In this document: positions 959 to 64,000 of the stretch, one piece after another | Numbering within the stretch: the stretch's first letter is position 1 | Layout of the letters: each line of letters starts with the position of its first letter | From: Candidatus Sungiibacteriota bacterium | GTDB taxonomy: Bacteria > Patescibacteriota > Minisyncoccia > Sungbacterales > HO2-52-23 | DNA length: 64,000 nucleotides | Direction: 5' to 3' | Assembly: GCA_016196115.1 (NCBI GenBank) | Contig: JACPYI010000023.1 | Span: 1,348-65,347 of the forward strand | Notes under the pieces: generated by a model | Told to the model about the DNA's origin: nothing | Database searches by the model: none | Seen by the model: the letters and a program-made list of their open reading frames with translations, nothing else | Made by a program: the position numbers and the translations under genes

Positions 959-1954
959 ATGGAAATGAAAAGAGCATTGGTATTGGGCGCGGGCGGATTT
1001 ATCGGAGGCCATCTGGTGAAACGGCTCAAAAAAGAGGGATATTGGGTGCGGGGGGTGGATCTCAAGCGCCACGAATACGAAGAAAGTCCGGCGGATGAAT
1101 TTGTGATCGGGGATTTGCGTGATCCGCGGGTTTGCGAAAAAGTTTTGGATCAGCCGTTCGACCGGGTATATCAGCTTGCCGCGGACATGGGAGGCGCCGG
1201 TTTTATTTTTACCGGGGACAACGACGCGGCCATCATGCACAATTCCGCCCTGATCAATTTGAATATCGCGGAGCTTGCCTCGCGCATGGGCGTGAAAAAG
1301 ATTTTTTACTCGTCCTCGGCATGCATCTATCCGGAGCGCAACCAGATGGACCCGGAGAAGCCCGTATGCGCCGAAGAGTCCGCATATCCGGCGGCTCCGG
1401 ACAGCGAGTACGGCTGGGAAAAGATTTTCAGCGAACGTTTCTATCTTGCATGCGCCCGCAACTGTAAACTTCCGGTCCGCATCGCCCGCTTTCACAACGT
1501 GTTCGGTCCGGAGGGCACCTGGACCGGCAGCAGGGAAAAAGCTCCGGCTGCCATTTGCAGGAAAGTTGCGGAGGCACCCGATGGAGGCGAAATTGAAATC
1601 TGGGGAGACGGCAAGCAGACCCGCTCGTTTTTGTATATTGATGAATGTCTTGATGGCGTAGAGCGCTTGATGCGGTCCGACTTTACGGGTCCGGTCAATA
1701 TCGGTTCCGAAGAGATGGTCACGATCAACGGCCTTGCCCACATGGCAATGGAGATCGCGGGCAAGAAACTCTCCATCAAGCATGTGCCCGGGCCCCTTGG
1801 CGTGCGCGGGAGGAATTCCGACAACCGCCTCATCCTTGAAAAGCTCGGCTGGGCTCCTTCGCTGCCGCTCAAAGAGGGACTTGCCAAGACCTACGCATGG
1901 ATTGCGGATCGGGTGCGGGACAATCTGGTATACGCGACCAACCCATATGGCTGA
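959..1954 (+). CDS. NAD-dependent epimerase/dehydratase (extended SDR; GDP-/UDP-sugar epimerase-like)
   Basis: N-terminal [14 protein letters not shown] Rossmann motif; typical WcaG-like length of 331 aa. Confidence 0.85.
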
Positions 1955-38411: not shown

Positions 38412-40676
38412 ATGCTCACGAGAATCCGCGTATACGGCCATTCCCATGCATATTACCCTCTTCTTGGGGGAGCCGCATTGTGTTTCTTTCTGATGGCATG
38501 GATACTGGTGTCATTCGGCGCCTCCCGGCTTCACGCATTCGGGCCAACAGCAACAATTTATTTTGATGCTCTCAAAAACGGGCTGATCATTGCAACGGCG
38601 TTTCTCACGGCATCGCTTGTTTTTTTTATATCCCTTGACAAACGTCTGGAGAGCATGGGTTTGCGTTTGCGCGATGCGTATGCGTCTCTCGGGAGCCGTG
38701 GGCAAAACATGTGTATGCTTGCCGTGTGCGCAGTTTTCTCTTTTGCGAGCCATGCGAACAACATCTTGCGCGGTTATTTTTATCTCGATGATTTCGAAGT
38801 CATGGAGGTAGCCCGCGCCAATTCGTTTCTGCGCTCTCTCCTGATACCTCATGGCGAAGACCACATATTGCCGCTTTTCAGAATTGAAATGAAAATACTT
38901 GATACGTTCTTTGGAACCAATCCAACGCCCTATAACATTTTTGTTTTTATTATTTTCGCGCTGACTTCATTTTTTACCTATCTTGCATTCAAGCGACTGA
39001 AGCTGCCCGTGGGGAGCTTTATAATATTTTTGGTTCTCTTTAGCGGAACTCCGGCCTGGTCGGAAATACTTACCGGCTACTATACGATCTCCATATATCT
39101 GCAGATATCTTTCTTCTTTGCCGTCATGCTATGGGCATACGCGGCATGGATGCACGTGAACCGGCGGCGGTACCTGGCGATATTTGCCATCGCGCTGGCA
39201 GGCGCCGTTACGGTTGATAATACGGGAGTGTGGGTGGTACCGGCCATCATCATAGCCATGGCGGCCACATACCGACGATTCGATCGCGCGCCAACCGCGC
39301 CGCAAAGAAGATTGCGACATTTTTTTCTTCAGAACCGCTATCCCCTGTCCATCGTCGTCATCGTCGGAACGCTCTATGCGGCATTCTTTGCGATTTCATT
39401 TTTGGTGCTGCAGCCCGGCACGTTTCTATCCTCGTCGCACACGAACATACCGCACATGGCAAAGGACGGCATCTCCGTCATATCCTCCGGGCTGACTCTC
39501 GCGGCTTTTGCTCCCCATACGCCAAAACTCCTTGCCCATCCCGTATTAATAACCTCCATAGGTCGGCTATGGCCATCCTTTGAATACGCGCTGTTTTTCC
39601 TTAATCTGCTGTTCTTTTGGTGCGCCCGCAGAAATGCCGCCCGACACGAAAGAACTTTTTTAATGGGTTGTGCGGGAATCTTGTTGCTCACTATTTTTAT
39701 GGTAGTGCGCGCACGACCCGGAGCCGGCTTGATTCCTGACTTCAATTTTAAGCATGTCGGCATGTTGTTTTATTTTTATTGCGCAGTACTCGCGATTGGT
39801 ATCAACAGTATCGTAACATCAAAACGACTGAGTTGGGTCAAAACCGCCTTGCCTTTTCTCATCGTGACCGTTGCGGCGCAGCAGGCCTTCAGCTTTCATG
39901 CAATTCGATTACGCGAAGAGGCAATAAGCAGAAGAACGGCGACTGAACTGGTTCAGACACGCCTCATCTCTGAACTCAAAAAACTTTCCCAAACCGACGG
40001 CACGGCTCTTCGCGTGCCAAATCTTAGCGGTTCGTACATATACGAACCGCAAGCAGGAATCAGTCTGACCGATTATGTGCAATTTTTTAATGCGCCGATC
40101 CCGATTGCATTCCTCCAAAACGGTGCAATGCCGCCGCATGTGAAAACTCATACGGTTACCACCGTACCGAGTTTGCGCGCCGCGACGAGCCGCGAGTTTA
40201 AAGACGCGCTGAAAACTTCCGCGCGCCTGCAGCAATACTATACGGCGCCGACTCTGGTGGGCTACCAAGCCGAACTTATTTCGCGCGATTCGGCCCCTGC
40301 GCCCCATTCCCCGCAAGACCGCATCATGGCAAGACGCGGCGGTGACGCCGCCCATGCTTCCATTCTCATTGATAGCCGCGCATCCTTTGACCCTGAAAAA
40401 TTCCATCGGCTTTCTCTGGAATTGGTAACCGATGATATCCCCGGCAATATTGAGCTCCCGCTCGCCTTCACCAATGACTTCGTAAAAAAGAGCGCCGCGC
40501 GCGTGCGGATTGACGACTTTACGCCATACGTGCTGGCGGAAAATAAACGGCGTTATGCCCTTACGGCCGACTTGCTGCAGATCTATATCTATGCGCTTTC
40601 GGAACGTGTCGGGAATCTCATGCTTGAATTCCCGCCCAGAAAAAACATCAAACTCACATCCATGAGCTTTGAGTGA
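38412..40676 (+). CDS. Large polytopic membrane protein, GT-C-fold glycosyltransferase-like (12 or more TM helices plus a roughly 300-aa C-terminal extracytoplasmic domain)
   Basis: Hydrophobic N-terminal two-thirds with a DD-containing first loop (YFYLDDFEV), as in ArnT/PMT/GtrC-type GT-C enzymes; it lies immediately upstream of a polyprenyl-phosphate GT2. Confidence 0.5.
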   Translation: MLTRIRVYGHSHAYYPLLGGAALCFFLMAWILVSFGASRLHAFGPTATIYFDALKNGLIIATAFLTASLVFFISLDKRLESMGLRLRDAYASLGSRGQNMCMLAVCAVFSFASHANNILRGYFYLDDFEVMEVARANSFLRSLLIPHGEDHILPLFRIEMKILDTFFGTNPTPYNIFVFIIFALTSFFTYLAFKRLKLPVGSFIIFLVLFSGTPAWSEILTGYYTISIYLQISFFFAVMLWAYAAWMHVNRRRYLAIFAIALAGAVTVDNTGVWVVPAIIIAMAATYRRFDRAPTAPQRRLRHFFLQNRYPLSIVVIVGTLYAAFFAISFLVLQPGTFLSSSHTNIPHMAKDGISVISSGLTLAAFAPHTPKLLAHPVLITSIGRLWPSFEYALFFLNLLFFWCARRNAARHERTFLMGCAGILLLTIFMVVRARPGAGLIPDFNFKHVGMLFYFYCAVLAIGINSIVTSKRLSWVKTALPFLIVTVAAQQAFSFHAIRLREEAISRRTATELVQTRLISELKKLSQTDGTALRVPNLSGSYIYEPQAGISLTDYVQFFNAPIPIAFLQNGAMPPHVKTHTVTTVPSLRAATSREFKDALKTSARLQQYYTAPTLVGYQAELISRDSAPAPHSPQDRIMARRGGDAAHASILIDSRASFDPEKFHRLSLELVTDDIPGNIELPLAFTNDFVKKSAARVRIDDFTPYVLAENKRRYALTADLLQIYIYALSERVGNLMLEFPPRKNIKLTSMSFE

Positions 40677-52228: not shown

Positions 52229-53401
52229 TTATATTATACACCGCTCAAAACCTTTACGGTACAGCTGGAGGTACTCGCTCTCGCTGTGCGGTTTCATTTC
52301 GGCAAGCGTGTGGCGCGCCGCGTCGGCAAACGCATGGCGTTTTTCCGGGTGCTCGTATAGATCCAGAACCCCAGCAAGAAAGGCATCGCGGTCTCCCATC
52401 GGCACCACGCGGCCATTCACGCCGTCCCGCACTATTTCTCCGGCCAAGCCAACGTCGGTCATCACAAGCGGGACTCCGGCAGCCATTGCTTCCATCGCAA
52501 CCAATCCCCACCCCTCGTAATTCGACGAGATCAGAGATACATCAAAGCACTTGTAGAAAGAGGCAAGATCATTGCGCCACGGTTCGATCACGACGTTTTT
52601 GTTCAGTCCAAACCGCACAACTTTCTTTTGATAATTCGCCTTGTCCGGCCCGTCACCGACCAGGAAAAGAACGGCTGTGGGTTCCTGTTTTACAAAATCA
52701 GCCATCATCTTGATCAACATACTGAAATTTTTCTCTTTATCCACGAATCGTCCCACCGCGATCATCCGAAACGCATATTTTTTGAGACGCGTCAAATCTT
52801 CCGGCTTGGGAAACGAATCGCGGAGCGGTTCGAGATCGGTGAATATCGGCAAGACAAAAATTTTTGATTCCGGAATCCGAAGTTCGGCAACCAATGAGCG
52901 TTTGATCCGCTCGCTTACGACGCGCATGCAATCCGCGCGCGGGAGCAGAAATTGCGCGAGCAGCGCACGAAGATATTCTTTCCGCGAGGCGCGCCCATAC
53001 CGCGGACTCAACACATCAGTATGCACTTGCAATTGCAGCTTTATATTGAAACGGCGGGCAATGCGGTACGCAATCAGCCCGACTTCATCCGGTGCTTGGC
53101 TGGTGATGACGTCGAAACGGACGCGGCTCACAAGCTTCCTTGCTATGCGATACATGCGCCACCGCTGCAGCAACGGATTGCCTGCAGCCGGATAAAGGAA
53201 GAGGCGGCCGTTTTGCTCGTCCGGCGAGCGTGGAGTTTCACCAGAGCAAAAAAGTGATTGGGGTTCTCGTGCTTTGAAACTGGCGGTCATGACTATGATA
53301 TGCAGCTCGTCAAAAAGCTCCGCATAGCGCTTCATGCGTTTGCGCGCGCTGCTTCCGACAACGCAGATATTCGGATCTTGGGCAAGCATTAAAATTTTCA
53401 T
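52229..53401 (-). CDS. Glycosyltransferase family 4
   Basis: MKILMLAQDP; VGRFVDKEKNFSMLI...LISSNYEGWGLVAMEAMAAGVPLVMTDVGLAGEIV. Confidence 0.8.
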   Translation of the reverse strand: MKILMLAQDPNICVVGSSARKRMKRYAELFDELHIIVMTASFKAREPQSLFCSGETPRSPDEQNGRLFLYPAAGNPLLQRWRMYRIARKLVSRVRFDVITSQAPDEVGLIAYRIARRFNIKLQLQVHTDVLSPRYGRASRKEYLRALLAQFLLPRADCMRVVSERIKRSLVAELRIPESKIFVLPIFTDLEPLRDSFPKPEDLTRLKKYAFRMIAVGRFVDKEKNFSMLIKMMADFVKQEPTAVLFLVGDGPDKANYQKKVVRFGLNKNVVIEPWRNDLASFYKCFDVSLISSNYEGWGLVAMEAMAAGVPLVMTDVGLAGEIVRDGVNGRVVPMGDRDAFLAGVLDLYEHPEKRHAFADAARHTLAEMKPHSESEYLQLYRKGFERCII

Positions 53402-55710
53402 GCGTTTTTGAGCAGTGCCGTGATCTCATTCAGCATTCGTTGGGCCGAGAATGATCCTGCTTTTTCCCGCGCGCGCTCTGATAATCTACGGGTAAAATCA
53501 TGATCGTTCAGAAGCCGCATAACTGCAGCTTGCATCTGATTAATATTGTTCCAATCGAAAAACAAACCGGTTTCTCCATCCTGAATGAGCTCGATATTTC
53601 CTCCCGCGCGCGTCGTACAGACCGGAATTCCCAGAGCCATGGCTTCCAGTATAGCATGAGAGAAACCTTCGTATTTTGTATTGAGTATAAATATGTCACC
53701 GGCAATCAGTGATGTGAGAACGTCTTCATGCGATAAACTACCCGCTAACTCAATGACGAAGCCCGGTTCAGGAGCGCGTATTACATCTTCAACATGAACG
53801 GGACCACTACCAATAATTCTTAAACGAATATCGCGATCCGGGACATCTGCTCTTAATTTTTGCACGAGTTCAATCACGGCCTCAAACCCTTTCCACGGCA
53901 CGAGCCGACCGACGGAAATGAGCACAGTTCCCGAAAAACCGAGTTTTTCTCGCGCTTCGTTTTTGGTTAACATCCTGATAGGCGGATCAAAAGCGTTATA
54001 GATTACGGTAATGCGATCCCGGGGAACACCCCACCGCGTCACGACGCCACGCAGATATTCGCTCGGAACCACGATGCTGTCGGCACGACATGCTACCCAT
54101 CGCTCAAGCCGGCGAAGCATTTCCACCTTCCAGTCATATTTTTTCTCCAGAAACTCATCGAGTGGATCCGCAACGCCGAATCGCTGGCTGCCCTGTTCCC
54201 ATGCATAGTCCCCCACGATCTTGAGCACGAATTTTTTGCGGGTCAGCATGGCGGCTAAGGCAGCCGGGGCCCCGACCGAAACGGGATCCTGCGCGAAAAT
54301 AACGTCGGCGGCCAGGCCTCTCCAAAATATGTTCCAGAAATACGCGCCGTGGCGGATCAATTTTGGAAGATGGCGCACGGAACGGAACGGCAACACCGTC
54401 ACGACAAACCCGGATTTGGGCAACTCATCCTGCAGCAGTTTGCTGTACGTCGCGGGACCTCCGATTTCAGGCGGGAAAAGGCCGGTGGCGACAAGAATCC
54501 GGCAAGATAAGACCCGGTCAAAAACTTCTTCGTATTGTCCGGCAATCGAATCCCAAAGAAAGCGCTCGCGGATCATTTTTTTGCCGTTCTCGACGATTGA
54601 CCGGCTTAATCCAGGATCCTGCAGAAGGCGCATGATTTTCTCCGCGGCATCGCCCGGATCGTCAACTTTCGCGAACAACCCTGTTACCCCGTCCGTGATA
54701 ATATCAGGAATCCCGCCGACCCGAGTCCCGATAATGGGAACGCCGGCGGCAAGCGCTTCAACAAAAGAAACCCCCATCCCCTCGGAACGCGAAAGACGGA
54801 TAAAGATTGTTGCCTGATGCAGATGCGCCGGGATTTTTTCGAACGGGACGCTCCCGAAAAATTTGATCTCATGTTCAACCCCAAGCTCTTTGGCAAGAAA
54901 TCCAAGAGCGGACCTGTCCGGCCCGTCTCCGAGAATATGACATTGGAGCGGCTTCCCTTTATTCTTGAGAACGGCTATGGCACGGACAAGGGTATCAATG
55001 CCATTCTTTTCCACCAAGCGCGAGGTAGTGATGATAATTGGGGCATGCTCTATGTCATTCCCGACTTGATCGGGAATCCAGTCAGTACTGATTCTTGATT
55101 CCCGCTTTCGCGGGAATGACAGCAGACCATTTGCGCTTTTGTCGCGAAGACCGAAAAGATCTGCGTTAACTCCATTATGAATAAGTACGCACCGGCCGTG
55201 ATACCCGTATGCAGCCGCAACTTCCCCGAGATACGATGAGATCACGGTTACCTCATCCGCAAGCCAGAGCATCAGCCGGAGCGCCGCGCCGATCATGCCG
55301 AGCCGACCCGATGCAAGGCGGCTATCTCCGTACCCATACTGGATGTTGAGGACAAACGGATGCCGGGGCCGCAGTATTTTACAAAAAAAGGCAGCTACGG
55401 AGCCCTGCGAAATATCAACTCCCCACAGTATCGCCCTACCTTCCCCGCCGATGTTCCGCAGCGCCACAATGCAACCGAAAAACGGCAGGAGCCATTTATC
55501 GAATCCCCGACCAATACCCACCCGAATCACTTTTCCTTCGGGACGGATCTCGCACTTCGGAAGACGCCGGGAGAACCGACTCGTCACGATACGGACGTCA
55601 AAACGCCGGTTCAGCCTCCGACCGATTTCTTGAATCGCGGTTTCCACCCCTCCGACAAACGGATAATACGAGGTCGTGAAAATAATAAGTCTTGTTTTTT
55701 CCATCATCAC
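53398..55710 (-). CDS. Tandem double GT4 glycosyltransferase (two complete GT-B units in one 770-aa polypeptide) with a palindromic-element insertion in the first unit
   Basis: Unit 1: RLIIFTTSYYPFVGGVE...FIRLSRSEGMGVSFVEALAAGVPIIGT. Unit 2: RILVATGLFPPEIGGPA...FILNTKYEGFSHAILEAMALGIPVCTT. Confidence 0.75.
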   Translation of the reverse strand: MMMEKTRLIIFTTSYYPFVGGVETAIQEIGRRLNRRFDVRIVTSRFSRRLPKCEIRPEGKVIRVGIGRGFDKWLLPFFGCIVALRNIGGEGRAILWGVDISQGSVAAFFCKILRPRHPFVLNIQYGYGDSRLASGRLGMIGAALRLMLWLADEVTVISSYLGEVAAAYGYHGRCVLIHNGVNADLFGLRDKSANGLLSFPRKRESRISTDWIPDQVGNDIEHAPIIITTSRLVEKNGIDTLVRAIAVLKNKGKPLQCHILGDGPDRSALGFLAKELGVEHEIKFFGSVPFEKIPAHLHQATIFIRLSRSEGMGVSFVEALAAGVPIIGTRVGGIPDIITDGVTGLFAKVDDPGDAAEKIMRLLQDPGLSRSIVENGKKMIRERFLWDSIAGQYEEVFDRVLSCRILVATGLFPPEIGGPATYSKLLQDELPKSGFVVTVLPFRSVRHLPKLIRHGAYFWNIFWRGLAADVIFAQDPVSVGAPAALAAMLTRKKFVLKIVGDYAWEQGSQRFGVADPLDEFLEKKYDWKVEMLRRLERWVACRADSIVVPSEYLRGVVTRWGVPRDRITVIYNAFDPPIRMLTKNEAREKLGFSGTVLISVGRLVPWKGFEAVIELVQKLRADVPDRDIRLRIIGSGPVHVEDVIRAPEPGFVIELAGSLSHEDVLTSLIAGDIFILNTKYEGFSHAILEAMALGIPVCTTRAGGNIELIQDGETGLFFDWNNINQMQAAVMRLLNDHDFTRRLSERAREKAGSFSAQRMLNEITALLKNA
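55054..55120. repeat. Composite palindromic repeat element (two ATTCCC-N8/9-GGGAAT inverted repeats) embedded in-frame in the GT4 coding sequence
   Basis: gtcATTCCCGActtgaTCGGGAATccag...ATTCCCGCtttcGCGGGAATgac. It is the reverse complement of the element at 63662..63738, with a different central spacer. It encodes ...SFPRKRESRISTDWIPDQVGND... in the gene. Confidence 0.8.
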
Positions 55711-57729: not shown

Positions 57730-57776
57730 ATATCACCACCATAGCATAGTCAATCCGCGGTGGTCAACCATAAATC

Positions 57777-57801
57777 AAAACCCCCCTGATCGGGGGGTTT
57801 T
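57777..57801 (-). terminator. Strong bidirectional rho-independent terminator (10-bp stem AAAACCCCCC/GGGGGGTTTT, loop TGATC)
   Basis: Perfect hairpin flanked by A/T runs, located 32 nt after the stop of the large surface-protein gene. Confidence 0.8.
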
Positions 57802-57832
57802 GACACTCGCTACACAAGGAGATTACGAGACT

Positions 57833-61591: not shown

Positions 61592-62098
61592 AATGTTTTT
61601 AATGTTTTTATTACTCACCGAAAATTTTCTGAACGCCTCACTTCTTACCCTTGTCGACGAACCGGGTAAGTAAAAGGCGTATTTTGATTTGAATAAATAA
61701 TGAAGAAGAATGCTTATGAAGCTCAAGTTCCCCTCATCCGTACCCCGCTTTCTGATATCTGACTTCTGATATCCGACATCAGAAAGCGGAGCACGGGCTT
61801 AAGGAGATCGACCGAATCTTGAAACTCCACGTGTAAAGAAACCTTCAAACTATGTTCAATATCGCACATCATTCTTTCAATTGTCAACGTCCTCTCCCAT
61901 CAGAAATAATCAGGGATCCCACATACGTTATAGCATAAGTATACTGTTCTCGCAAGAACACGCAAGTACACTTATCCACATCATGTATAGTATAGAACTG
62001 CCTGCACTGTTACACAAGTACCCCCCTGTGGATAACCGTGCCTAGTAACTAATACGCCAGCTTTTCAAGCATAGTTGCACAACATGGGCCAGCATACA

Positions 62099-63558: not shown

Positions 63559-63646
63559 GGTATACTGCTTGTCATACCAATAACTTCCCCGACTGTCAAT
63601 TTTCGTTTTTGCGAATGAGATATAAATTTGTTAAAGTACCCATAAG

Positions 63647-63738
63647 ATTCCCGCTACTTTTGTCATTCCCGCGAAAGCGGGAATCCAGCATGCTCATGGG
63701 GTAGGCAATTCTGGATTCCCGATCAAGTCGGGAATGAC
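63647..63738. repeat. Intergenic composite palindromic repeat element (ATTCCCGC-GAAA-GCGGGAAT and ATTCCCGA-TCAAG-TCGGGAAT) plus an extra ATTCCCGC half-site
   Basis: gtcATTCCCGCgaaaGCGGGAATccag (63662-63688), ctggATTCCCGAtcaagTCGGGAATgac (63711-63738) and attcccgc at 63647-63654. Same element family as 55054..55120. Confidence 0.8.
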
Positions 63739-63750
63739 GGAAAACAAACT

Positions 63751-64000
63751 ATGAAAAAAGAAACTCTGCCGCAAAAACAAAACCGCGCTAAAAATATTTT
63801 TACTCGACTCAAGCGGATATACCCGCAGGCCGGCATGATTCTCCGATTTTCCAACCCGTGGGAGCTTTTGGTCGCCGTGATCCTCTCGGCACAGTGCACC
63901 GACAAAAAAGTGAATGAGGTCACGGAAAAACTTTTCAAAAAATACCGCATGCTCGACGATTACATCCGAGCGTCAGCCAGCGAACGCGCAGAAAAAGAAT
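63751..64000 (+). CDS. nth: Endonuclease III (Nth), N-terminal part; gene continues beyond the window end
   Basis: Translation from ATG 63751: MKKETLPQKQNRAKNIFTRLKRIYPQAGMILRFSNPWELLVAVILSAQCTDKKVNEVTEKLFKKY..., the canonical Nth N-terminus (NPFELL[IV]A.ILSAQ.TD). Confidence 0.7.
   Translation, partial: MKKETLPQKQNRAKNIFTRLKRIYPQAGMILRFSNPWELLVAVILSAQCTDKKVNEVTEKLFKKYRMLDDYIRASASERAEKE

Follow-up and report, generated by a model that had tools for sequence, protein, structure and literature searches.

Is a palindromic element that lies between two divergent genes an operator that serves them, or a repeat that has come to rest there? The question is raised by a 192-bp spacer (63559..63750) in a Candidatus Sungbacteria genome (Patescibacteria), within a stretch of 64,000 nucleotides of contig JACPYI010000023.1 that is referred to here as the window. 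The spacer separates the start of a helix-turn-helix (HTH) regulator gene (63558, minus strand) from the ATG of nth (63751), which encodes endonuclease III, and it holds a pair of inverted palindromes of which a second copy is found inside a glycosyltransferase gene of the same window. Our analysis indicates that the element is probably a REPIN/NIME-like doublet of single-stranded-DNA hairpins of the Ssn type, that is, of Ssn-related motifs (SRM), a family which includes dRS3 and the Neisseria Transformation Sequence (NTS), and that it is most likely carried as a tolerated passenger.

Re-reading of positions 63640..63760 bore out the three-part composite and the isolated half-site described in the original prediction. 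Arm 1 (GTCATTCCCGCGAAAGCGGGAATCCAG; 63662..63688, or 63661..63688 with the preceding base) lies on the plus strand and is an SRM/NTS-type hairpin in forward orientation with the layout tGTC-ATTCCCGC-GAAA-GCGGGAAT-CCAG. It is followed by a variable centre of 22 nt (catgctcatggggtaggcaatt; 63689..63710) and by arm 2 (CTGGATTCCCGATCAAGTCGGGAATGAC; 63711..63738), a hairpin that reads forward on the minus strand as cGTC-ATTCCCGA-CTTGA-TCGGGAAT-CCAG. The resulting 77-bp composite (63662..63738) places the two palindromes in inverted, tail-to-tail order, with GTC ends outward and CCAG ends inward, and 12 bp separate it from the nth ATG. The arms differ in their loops, that of arm 1 being the GCGAAAGC mini-hairpin loop and that of arm 2 being GACTTGATC. 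An orphan 5' half-site, ATTCCCGC, can be read on the plus strand at 63647..63654; its end is 7 nt from the GTC of arm 1 and 10 nt from the next ATTCCCGC.

The second copy (55054..55120) has the opposite orientation and a different centre, as had been predicted. Its arm 2 (55054..55081, plus strand) is identical to 63711..63738 at 28 of 28 positions, its centre (tcagtactgatt; 55082..55093) is 12 nt long and unlike the 22-nt centre in sequence, and its arm 1 (55094..55120, minus strand) matches 63662..63688 at 26 of 27 positions. The claim that the arms match exactly thus holds for the palindromic cores and fails at one flank base of arm 1 (CAAG instead of CCAG). The pattern ATTCCC-N6-12-GGGAAT has four matches in the window, all of them accounted for by these arms, where shuffled sequences predict 0.10; full-length arm 1 and full-length arm 2 each occur twice, against an expectation of 0.00. 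A possible further copy at 40610..40634 (CGGGAAT..ATTCCCG) has the halves in the wrong order, lies inside coding sequence and was judged to be due to chance. The whole window gave no match at Rfam gathering thresholds and no tRNA in an ARAGORN scan.

The family to which these palindromes belong was identified by a literature search with the DNA string, which led to the work of Chenal et al. (2025; PMC11893778). There, NTS is defined as CGTCATTCCCGCGMAVGCGGGAATCYRG, one mismatch being allowed and the flanks giving the orientation; it contains dRS3, ATTCCC-N8-GGGAAT, and the wider SRM pattern is HGTCWYN(0-2)YYVSBRHN(0-5)WNVSBRGN(0-2)RNCYNB (PMC11893778). Arm 1 of the intergenic copy (tGTCATTCCCGCGAAAGCGGGAATCCAG; 63661..63688 reads TGTCATTCCCGCGAAAGCGGGAATCCAG) differs from the NTS consensus at a single position, the first base, whereas the intragenic arm 1 has two mismatches and neither copy of arm 2 fits. 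The dRS3 definition is satisfied by arm 1 of both copies (ATTCCCGCGAAAGCGGGAAT) and not by arm 2, in which the interval is N9. For the SRM pattern, 63661..63688 is the sole match in the window, where shuffles predict 0.15, and the other three arms miss it by one or two positions. At the level of sequence, these comparisons show arm 1 to be a member of NTS/SRM.

SsnA, the protein linked to this motif, is a single-domain GIY-YIG protein of 94 amino acids that binds the hairpin in one orientation and only as single-stranded DNA, cleaving a few nucleotides upstream of it; RNA and double-stranded DNA are neither bound nor cut (PMC11893778). The three bases 5' of the palindrome weigh most for cleavage and the C immediately 3' for binding (PMC11893778). 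All four arms of the window read GTC-palindrome-C and so carry the bases that SsnA needs. The same holds widely: of 205 related hairpins with full flanks, those of the window included, 198 have T or C at position -1 and 203 have C at position +1, after which C/T, A and G are the usual bases. The GCGAAAGC loop of arm 1 belongs to the GCGNNAGC mini-hairpin sequences, and d(GCGNNAGC) has been described as an extraordinarily stable DNA mini-hairpin (PMC13037366). Compared with shuffled sequences, both copies fold strongly as single-stranded DNA (z -4.7 for copy A and z -6.2 for copy B). At minimum energy the DNA of the doublets forms a single long hairpin by pairing of the two arms with each other, and the alternative is two local hairpins.

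Neither the element nor its arms are confined to this genome. The core 21-mer of arm 2 was sought exactly in GTDB species genomes and at least 118 stretches matched, where by our estimate about 0.3 matches would be expected by chance in 596 Gb. The lineages listed among these matches include, within Patescibacteria, Saccharibacteria, Microgenomates, Peregrinibacteria, Parcubacteria and one Sungiibacteriota, and elsewhere Campylobacterota, Bacteroidota, Chloroflexota, Verrucomicrobiota, Fibrobacter, Zixibacteria, Alpha-, Gamma- and Zetaproteobacteria and others. Among plasmid records, blastn gave matches in Neisseria, Azospirillum, Sphingomonas, Sphingopyxis and Photobacterium.

The arrangement of the arms is also far from random. 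Where hairpins of the listed loci lie within 70 bp of each other, 36 pairs are tail-to-tail, 12 tandem and 9 head-to-head, as against the 25:50:25 that random orientation predicts. In 31 of the 36 tail-to-tail pairs the partner of arm 2 has a loop of a different type, in most cases GNRA-like (GCGAAAGC, GTGAAAAC, GCGGAAGC, GCGCAAGC). The distance between cores, comprising the centre and the inner flanks, ranges from 8 to 66 nt in other genomes and its sequence is variable, so that the 30 and 20 bp of the window copies are typical. In two Patescibacteria genomes that carry the doublet in homologous flanks, the arms are identical at 55 of 55 positions and the flanks at about 80%, and the 15-nt centre agrees at only 4 of 15. 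Whether through selection, conversion or re-insertion, the arms are therefore kept constant as the centre drifts. A flanking target-site duplication or direct repeat was found in none of 38 doublets. A reading as a simple miniature inverted-repeat transposable element was rejected because the two window centres are unrelated and no target duplication accompanies the doublets.

Other arrangements were seen among the listed loci. In four of them, from Verrucomicrobiota, Lentisphaerae and Kiritimatiellae (L012, L069, L064 and L112), ATTCCCGTTTTCACGGGAATGAC and arm 2 form a head-to-head pair around a centre of about 22 nt (agaatgggtgcgcgtgcttgtc); unlike that of the tail-to-tail doublets, this centre is conserved between genomes. 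A Rikenellaceae metagenome-assembled genome (L071, 3524..3991) contains three tandem units of 194 bp, each with an 80-bp tail-to-tail doublet and an identical centre.

Orphan 5' half-sites such as that at 63647..63654 precede 13 of 129 arm-2 copies in other genomes, often as tandem units of about 17-25 bp. At six loci (L086, L102, L091, L089, L074 and L079) tandem units made of the half-site GTCATTCCCGAC and 7-13 nt stand immediately before a full hairpin; in L102, which comes from an isolate of Limnohabitans parvus, the unit measures 25 bp. The position of these arrays suggests that duplication took place repeatedly at the reported cleavage site of Ssn.

The relatives of this genome allow the intergenic copy to be judged directly as operator or insertion. 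Orthologous spacers were recovered by a scan with the regulator protein and aligned to the window by eye; a metagenome scan with a conserved 29-mer from the spacer core gave no match. The regulator is 196 amino acids long and weakly matches a DeoR-type HTH; its gene is followed by that of a nucleotidyl transferase, and the identity of nth is supported by the HhH-GPD domain in the orthologous loci and by agreement of the N-termini. The order nth, regulator, nucleotidyl transferase, large PG-binding protein, TPR, PKD and glycosyltransferase genes is kept in L120 and L121. Against the 192 bp of the window, the spacer measures 43 bp in L121 and L124, 69 bp in L125, 99 bp in L120 and 105 bp in L126 and L132, and the motif is absent from all six.

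What these spacers have in common with the window is a core of 43 bp (63559..63601) that excludes the element, and no other part is kept across the six. On the minus strand the core reads TTGACA, 17 nt, TATGAC and ends 12 nt before the regulator ATG; read by eye, this is likely to be the promoter of the regulator and lies outside the element. The remaining 149 bp of the window spacer (63602..63750) consist of 60 bp of unique sequence including the half-site, the 77-bp composite and the 12 bp before the nth ATG, and they are absent from L121 and L124, where nth directly abuts the core. The many copies in other genomes and the element-free orthologous spacers therefore identify an inserted repeat and not a conserved operator, in agreement with the original prediction and contrary to both conditions under which it was to be given up. 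From the comparison of orthologues, both window copies are insertions specific to this Candidatus Sungbacteria lineage, and recent ones.

The interval between the core and the nth start also differs among the relatives themselves. L120 carries a different palindrome there (gctgtatctttctgatacagtagc, at about 1640..1690), and L126 and L132 have a longer stretch with many complementary runs of CCCCT and AGGGG (...ccctctaccccttcttgttaaggaggggaaaaaggggagg...). Judging by these alignments, the site seems to accept hairpin insertions repeatedly.

It nevertheless deserves consideration that the intergenic copy might regulate nth or the HTH regulator in cis, whether by binding a protein at its palindromes or by forming a hairpin in the leader RNA of nth, since the element stands 12 nt upstream of the nth start with divergent genes on both sides. 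The RNA folding proposed as a check does give a strong structure (-45 kcal/mol, z -4.2). Moreover, the 43-bp spacers of L121 and L124 imply a promoter for nth within the conserved core or upstream of it; if so, the element would be transcribed within a long leader and could alter translation or stability as a side effect. All the same, a regulatory element would be expected neither to be missing from six of six orthologous spacers nor to recur with the same arms in frame inside a gene of the same window and in unrelated genes and contexts of many lineages, where doublets show no positional preference. The conserved core, not the element, contains a small inverted repeat and what is probably the promoter of the regulator, and a consensus scan of the spacer called no promoter-like or terminator-like site. 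The suggestion that the arms act as RNA hairpins or protein-binding palindromes also finds no support in the published biology of the family, which concerns single-stranded DNA (PMC11893778). We thus regard a cis-regulatory function as improbable. To the host, the doublet most likely represents a passenger that is tolerated and has no regulatory design, and an incidental effect on the nth leader is possible.

As predicted, the second copy lies within a gene, an uninterrupted open reading frame (ORF) of 770 codons on the minus strand (53398..55710) that encodes a glycosyltransferase with two GT4 modules and is 100% identical to the GT4 glycosyltransferase of a Candidatus Sungbacteria metagenome-assembled genome. 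All 67 bp are translated in frame as ...LLSFPRKRESRISTDWIPDQVGNDIEH..., and the stretch SFPRKRESRISTDWIPDQVGND (22-23 residues) is missing from 12 homologues that are 52-75% identical over the alignment. An AlphaFold model of the protein (mean per-residue confidence, pLDDT, of 82) shows the inserted stretch as coil between helix 181-185 and strand 223-227; pLDDT is below 50 at residues 188-207, and 10-residue blocks over 191-220 average 35-53. The insert is thus placed in the first GT4 module, after the last helix of its N-terminal half and before the first strand of its C-terminal half. In the model, the intragenic doublet occupies a surface loop of the glycosyltransferase.

Further inserts occur among the glycosyltransferase homologues, of which more than 100, with source names including Sungbacteria and Giovannonibacteria, share the fusion of two GT4 modules. 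The orthologous gene of L121 (GCA_964371935.1, 10677..10718) contains a perfect 42-bp palindrome with a 19-bp stem, TCATTCCAGACTTAGTCTC-taag-GAGACTAAGTCTGGAATGA, which has TCATTCC...GGAATGA ends, is translated in frame as IIPDLVSKETKSGM at another loop of the glycosyltransferase and is without counterpart in the other 12 aligned sequences. With its SRM-like ends it has the look of a hairpin inserted independently, in a second event. The homologue P0007 carries a private insert, LPTGQAG, between an FD motif and the next PP residues (alignment columns ~603-609), which might be another translated repeat.

In other genomes doublets were seen in tandem, convergent, divergent and intragenic gene contexts with no preferred position, and 6 of 38 lie within ORFs. 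In-frame copies interrupt the sequences, and not the reading frames, of a PMT_2 protein (L049), a PP-loop (ATP_bind_3) protein (L026) and a methyltransferase-domain protein (L037). On plasmid pMC4 of Sphingopyxis indica, ileS, the gene for isoleucine-tRNA ligase, contains two arm-1-type hairpins that form an in-frame, tail-to-tail pair of 77 bp (L147, 1504..1580); the insert is read as …IRHPRESGNPERASADANMDSRFRGND…, and the coding sequence is annotated as intact on a complete isolate replicon. Such in-frame copies, one of them in an isolate, mark the behaviour as recurrent and not as an artefact of metagenome assembly.

The possibility that the resemblance is accidental, or the element an assembly error or chimera, can be weighed on the same evidence. 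The window does come from a metagenome-assembled genome, and palindromic repeats can mislead assemblers. Chance is excluded by the 0.00-0.10 matches expected from shuffles. As for an artefact, the element leaves the reading frame of its host gene open, with conserved sequence to either side, a similar in-frame doublet exists in the complete Sphingopyxis replicon, and a 2.6-kb contig of the Logan assembly of SRR12113416 shows the half-site and a portion of arm 1 in the same setting, together with the regulator gene. Since that assembly is independent, the element is not the product of a single one; the contig terminates within arm 1, which is weak support for repetition in this genome. An origin by chance or error is accordingly hardly credible.

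A different proposal would be that the hairpins are attachment or recombination sites of a phage or integrase, given that dRS3 is reported to be the target of a specific phage recombinase in Neisseria (PMC11893778). Neither window copy, however, adjoins a prophage or integrase, the neighbours being genes for a glycosyltransferase, a PKD-domain protein, the regulator and endonuclease III; 2.9 million viral contigs yielded a single occurrence of the arm-2 core; and a 67-bp doublet in frame within a gene is unlike an integration remnant. We consider such sites a very unlikely explanation.

If the doublets are inserted repeats, the question becomes what moves them, and here the neighbouring genes are informative. 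A profile hidden Markov model (HMM) was built from ORFs adjoining hairpins and detects single-domain GIY-YIG ORFs of about 86-106 residues; the two that were scanned match Pfam PF01541 with E ~1e-18. Such an ORF lies within 700 bp of an arm-2 copy at 4 of the 118 listed loci (L023, L046, L062 and L098) and at 2 kb at a fifth (L024), where by our rough estimate about 0.1 loci would be expected by chance. In L023 two hairpins immediately precede the GIY-YIG start codon. As far as gene neighbourhood can tell, the published association of motif and nuclease is reproduced for the arm-2 variant, the neighbours being candidate members of cd10448 (the Ssn family). A profile search with four of these GIY-YIG ORFs was saturated, all of 8000 candidates passing, and with no Patescibacteria among the named top-120 matches it is uninformative on ssn in the present lineage. 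A large share of the top Ssn-like matches were on very short contigs (~500-1500 bp), as flanking repeats that break assemblies would give.

These neighbours bear on a stricter version of the comparison with REPINs, in which the doublets would be moved by a REP-associated tyrosine transposase (RAYT; Y1, IS200/IS605-like) and the GIY-YIG link would be incidental. The architecture agrees with it, REPINs likewise consisting of an inverted pair of palindromic repeats around a short spacer and folding as a single long hairpin (PMC3116915, PMC3337134). At one Saccharibacteria locus (L032) a RAYT-like ORF with a YHIYNRG motif lies about 700 bp from the doublet. The lack of target-site duplication in 38 doublets fits as well, as would be expected of single-strand transposition. 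Yet L032 is the only one of the 118 listed loci with a RAYT-like ORF nearby, compared with four or five for GIY-YIG, and a motif search of the window found no RAYT-like ORF of the YHIYNRG type. At L141 and L143 RAYT-like genes do lie beside regulator homologues, but there was no SRM in the upstream region examined. The published genome-wide screen, too, tied the motif to ssnA and not to a transposase (PMC11893778). Movement by a tyrosine transposase is on balance unlikely. The ORFs with NFYHIYNRGV in L141 and L143, which are divergent from the regulator homologues, and in L032 have 217-242 codons; by this motif they resemble IS200/IS605-type or REP-associated tyrosine transposases.

If the element is instead an Ssn-type doublet, it would act as DNA. 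When the region becomes single-stranded during replication, repair or DNA uptake, each arm would fold into a hairpin, and the strand with the forward arm would offer a binding site for a single-domain GIY-YIG nuclease of the Ssn family. The bound enzyme would then cut a few nucleotides 5' of the GTC. Because a tail-to-tail doublet presents one forward arm per strand with its GTC outward, the predicted cuts fall just outside both ends and on opposite strands. This cut geometry, the excess of tail-to-tail pairs and the long-hairpin fold together make the doublet resemble a REPIN, with Ssn possibly taking the role that RAYT transposases take for REPINs. Such a geometry would also fit the published likening of NTS-ssnA-NTS to an insertion sequence (PMC11893778).

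Several observations weigh against this account. First, Ssn-driven mobility is itself only a hypothesis in the paper that proposed it (PMC11893778). Second, the nuclease is putative in the present host: an HMM search in six frames found no GIY-YIG gene in the 64-kb window, none of the five GIY-YIG-linked loci is from Patescibacteria, and NCBIfam and PDB searches with the neighbouring GIY-YIG proteins gave weak, generic GIY-YIG matches. Third, a strict SRM match was obtained for one of the four arms, arm 2 with its 9-nt interior falling outside the pattern. Finally, the two window centres share no sequence, which is unexpected under simple copying of a whole doublet, and the two doublets in 64 kb are all the copies seen in this genome. 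We keep the Ssn-type doublet as the probable identity of the element and treat as rather doubtful the further step, that the tail-to-tail hetero-doublet of a GACTTGATC loop and a GNRA-type loop is the actual replicating unit of the SRM family, REPIN-like, non-autonomous and moved through single-stranded DNA by Ssn.

The family was tied to a function, that of the Ssn single-strand nucleases, only in 2025. Our results extend the host range to Candidatus Sungbacteria and to many other lineages of Patescibacteria. Relative to the main text of PMC11893778, the Patescibacteria host, the oriented hetero-doublet, the preservation of arms over centre, the half-site arrays and the recurrent in-frame insertions are new. 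Doublets can enter genes in frame, some of them essential, without breaking them, and the predicted cuts outside both ends and on opposite strands provide a testable geometry that bears on mobility. If the doublet were indeed a unit moved by Ssn, Ssn would be a new kind of repeat-spreading nuclease and not just a restriction factor for transforming DNA, and this would explain both the identical arms across many bacterial lineages and the colonised coding loops of small symbiont genomes. For annotation, the peptides SFPRKRES, WIPDQVGND, VIPAKAGIQ and LDSRFRGND mark translated repeats and not conserved protein motifs; literature searches with such peptides (e.g., VIPAKAGIQ and SFPRKRES) found no paper.

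Two other inverted repeats of the window were recorded. One (61738..61796), between a 1297-codon ORF and the nucleotidyl transferase gene, has 25-nt arms that are 84% complementary and 9 nt apart and shares CTTTCTGATA with the spacer hairpin of L120. The other (57775..57803) is a perfect, terminator-like 12-bp stem (TCAAAACCCCCC / GGGGGGTTTTGA) with a 5-nt loop between two minus-strand ORFs.

Among the known systems with which the element can be compared, Correia elements are small, non-coding, bounded by inverted repeats and often near gene starts, all of which they share with it. They are about 100-155 bp long, with terminal repeats of their own, a TA target duplication and promoter and IHF sites. 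The present units measure 67 and 77 bp and no duplication was found in 38 doublets, so that, by description and not by sequence, they stand apart; of the likeness to Correia and dRS3 elements drawn in the original prediction, the part concerning dRS3 stands at the sequence level, where arm 1 fits, and the part concerning Correia elements does not. Neisseria NIMEs, in which RS segments are bracketed by dRS3, similarly place dRS3-type inverted repeats around a variable middle. Their middles, however, are repeat families of 50-150 bp in intergenic positions, whereas the present centres are unique and 12 and 22 bp long. The Rickettsia palindromic elements (RPE) reported by Ogata et al. in 2000 are said to be of about 100-150 bp and to insert in frame into genes of a small-genome symbiont. 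Their sequence is a different one; by description, they resemble our element as in-frame palindromic repeats tolerated as extra surface peptide.

The closest relatives in sequence are NTS/dRS3/SRM, which share the palindrome ATTCCCGC..GCGGGAAT and its flanks, GTC on the 5' side and C(C/T)(A)G on the 3' side; as for NTS/SRM, small GIY-YIG genes adjoin copies of the arm-2 variant in other genomes. A symbiotic way of life is presumed for Candidatus Sungbacteria and would agree with an enrichment of SRMs among symbionts. That enrichment was reported with the family itself, in a main text that leaves the phylum of the present host unmentioned (PMC11893778). Differences exist as well, in that the present arm 2, with its 9-nt interior and CTTGA loop, does not fit the pattern, the elements are hetero-doublets, and no ssn gene was seen in the 64 kb. 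Moreover, 2% of NTS are intragenic in N. meningitidis (PMC11893778), as against one of the two copies here, which is in frame within a gene.

In architecture, the nearest parallel is REPIN/BIME with RAYT (Bertels and Rainey, 2011; PMC3116915), with which the doublet shares the inverted pair of palindromes, the short spacer, the long-hairpin fold, a strong bias in pair orientation and arms that are kept better than the spacer. The suspected driver is in both cases a single-copy, nuclease-type gene flanked by repeats. The repeat sequence is another one, the gene associated here is a GIY-YIG nuclease and not a Y1 transposase, the centres of the two copies are fully unalike, and REPINs are described as extragenic whereas the present family also occurs in frame. 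The features by which a REPIN is recognised, namely an inverted doublet, a long hairpin and an excess of doublets, were nonetheless all found.

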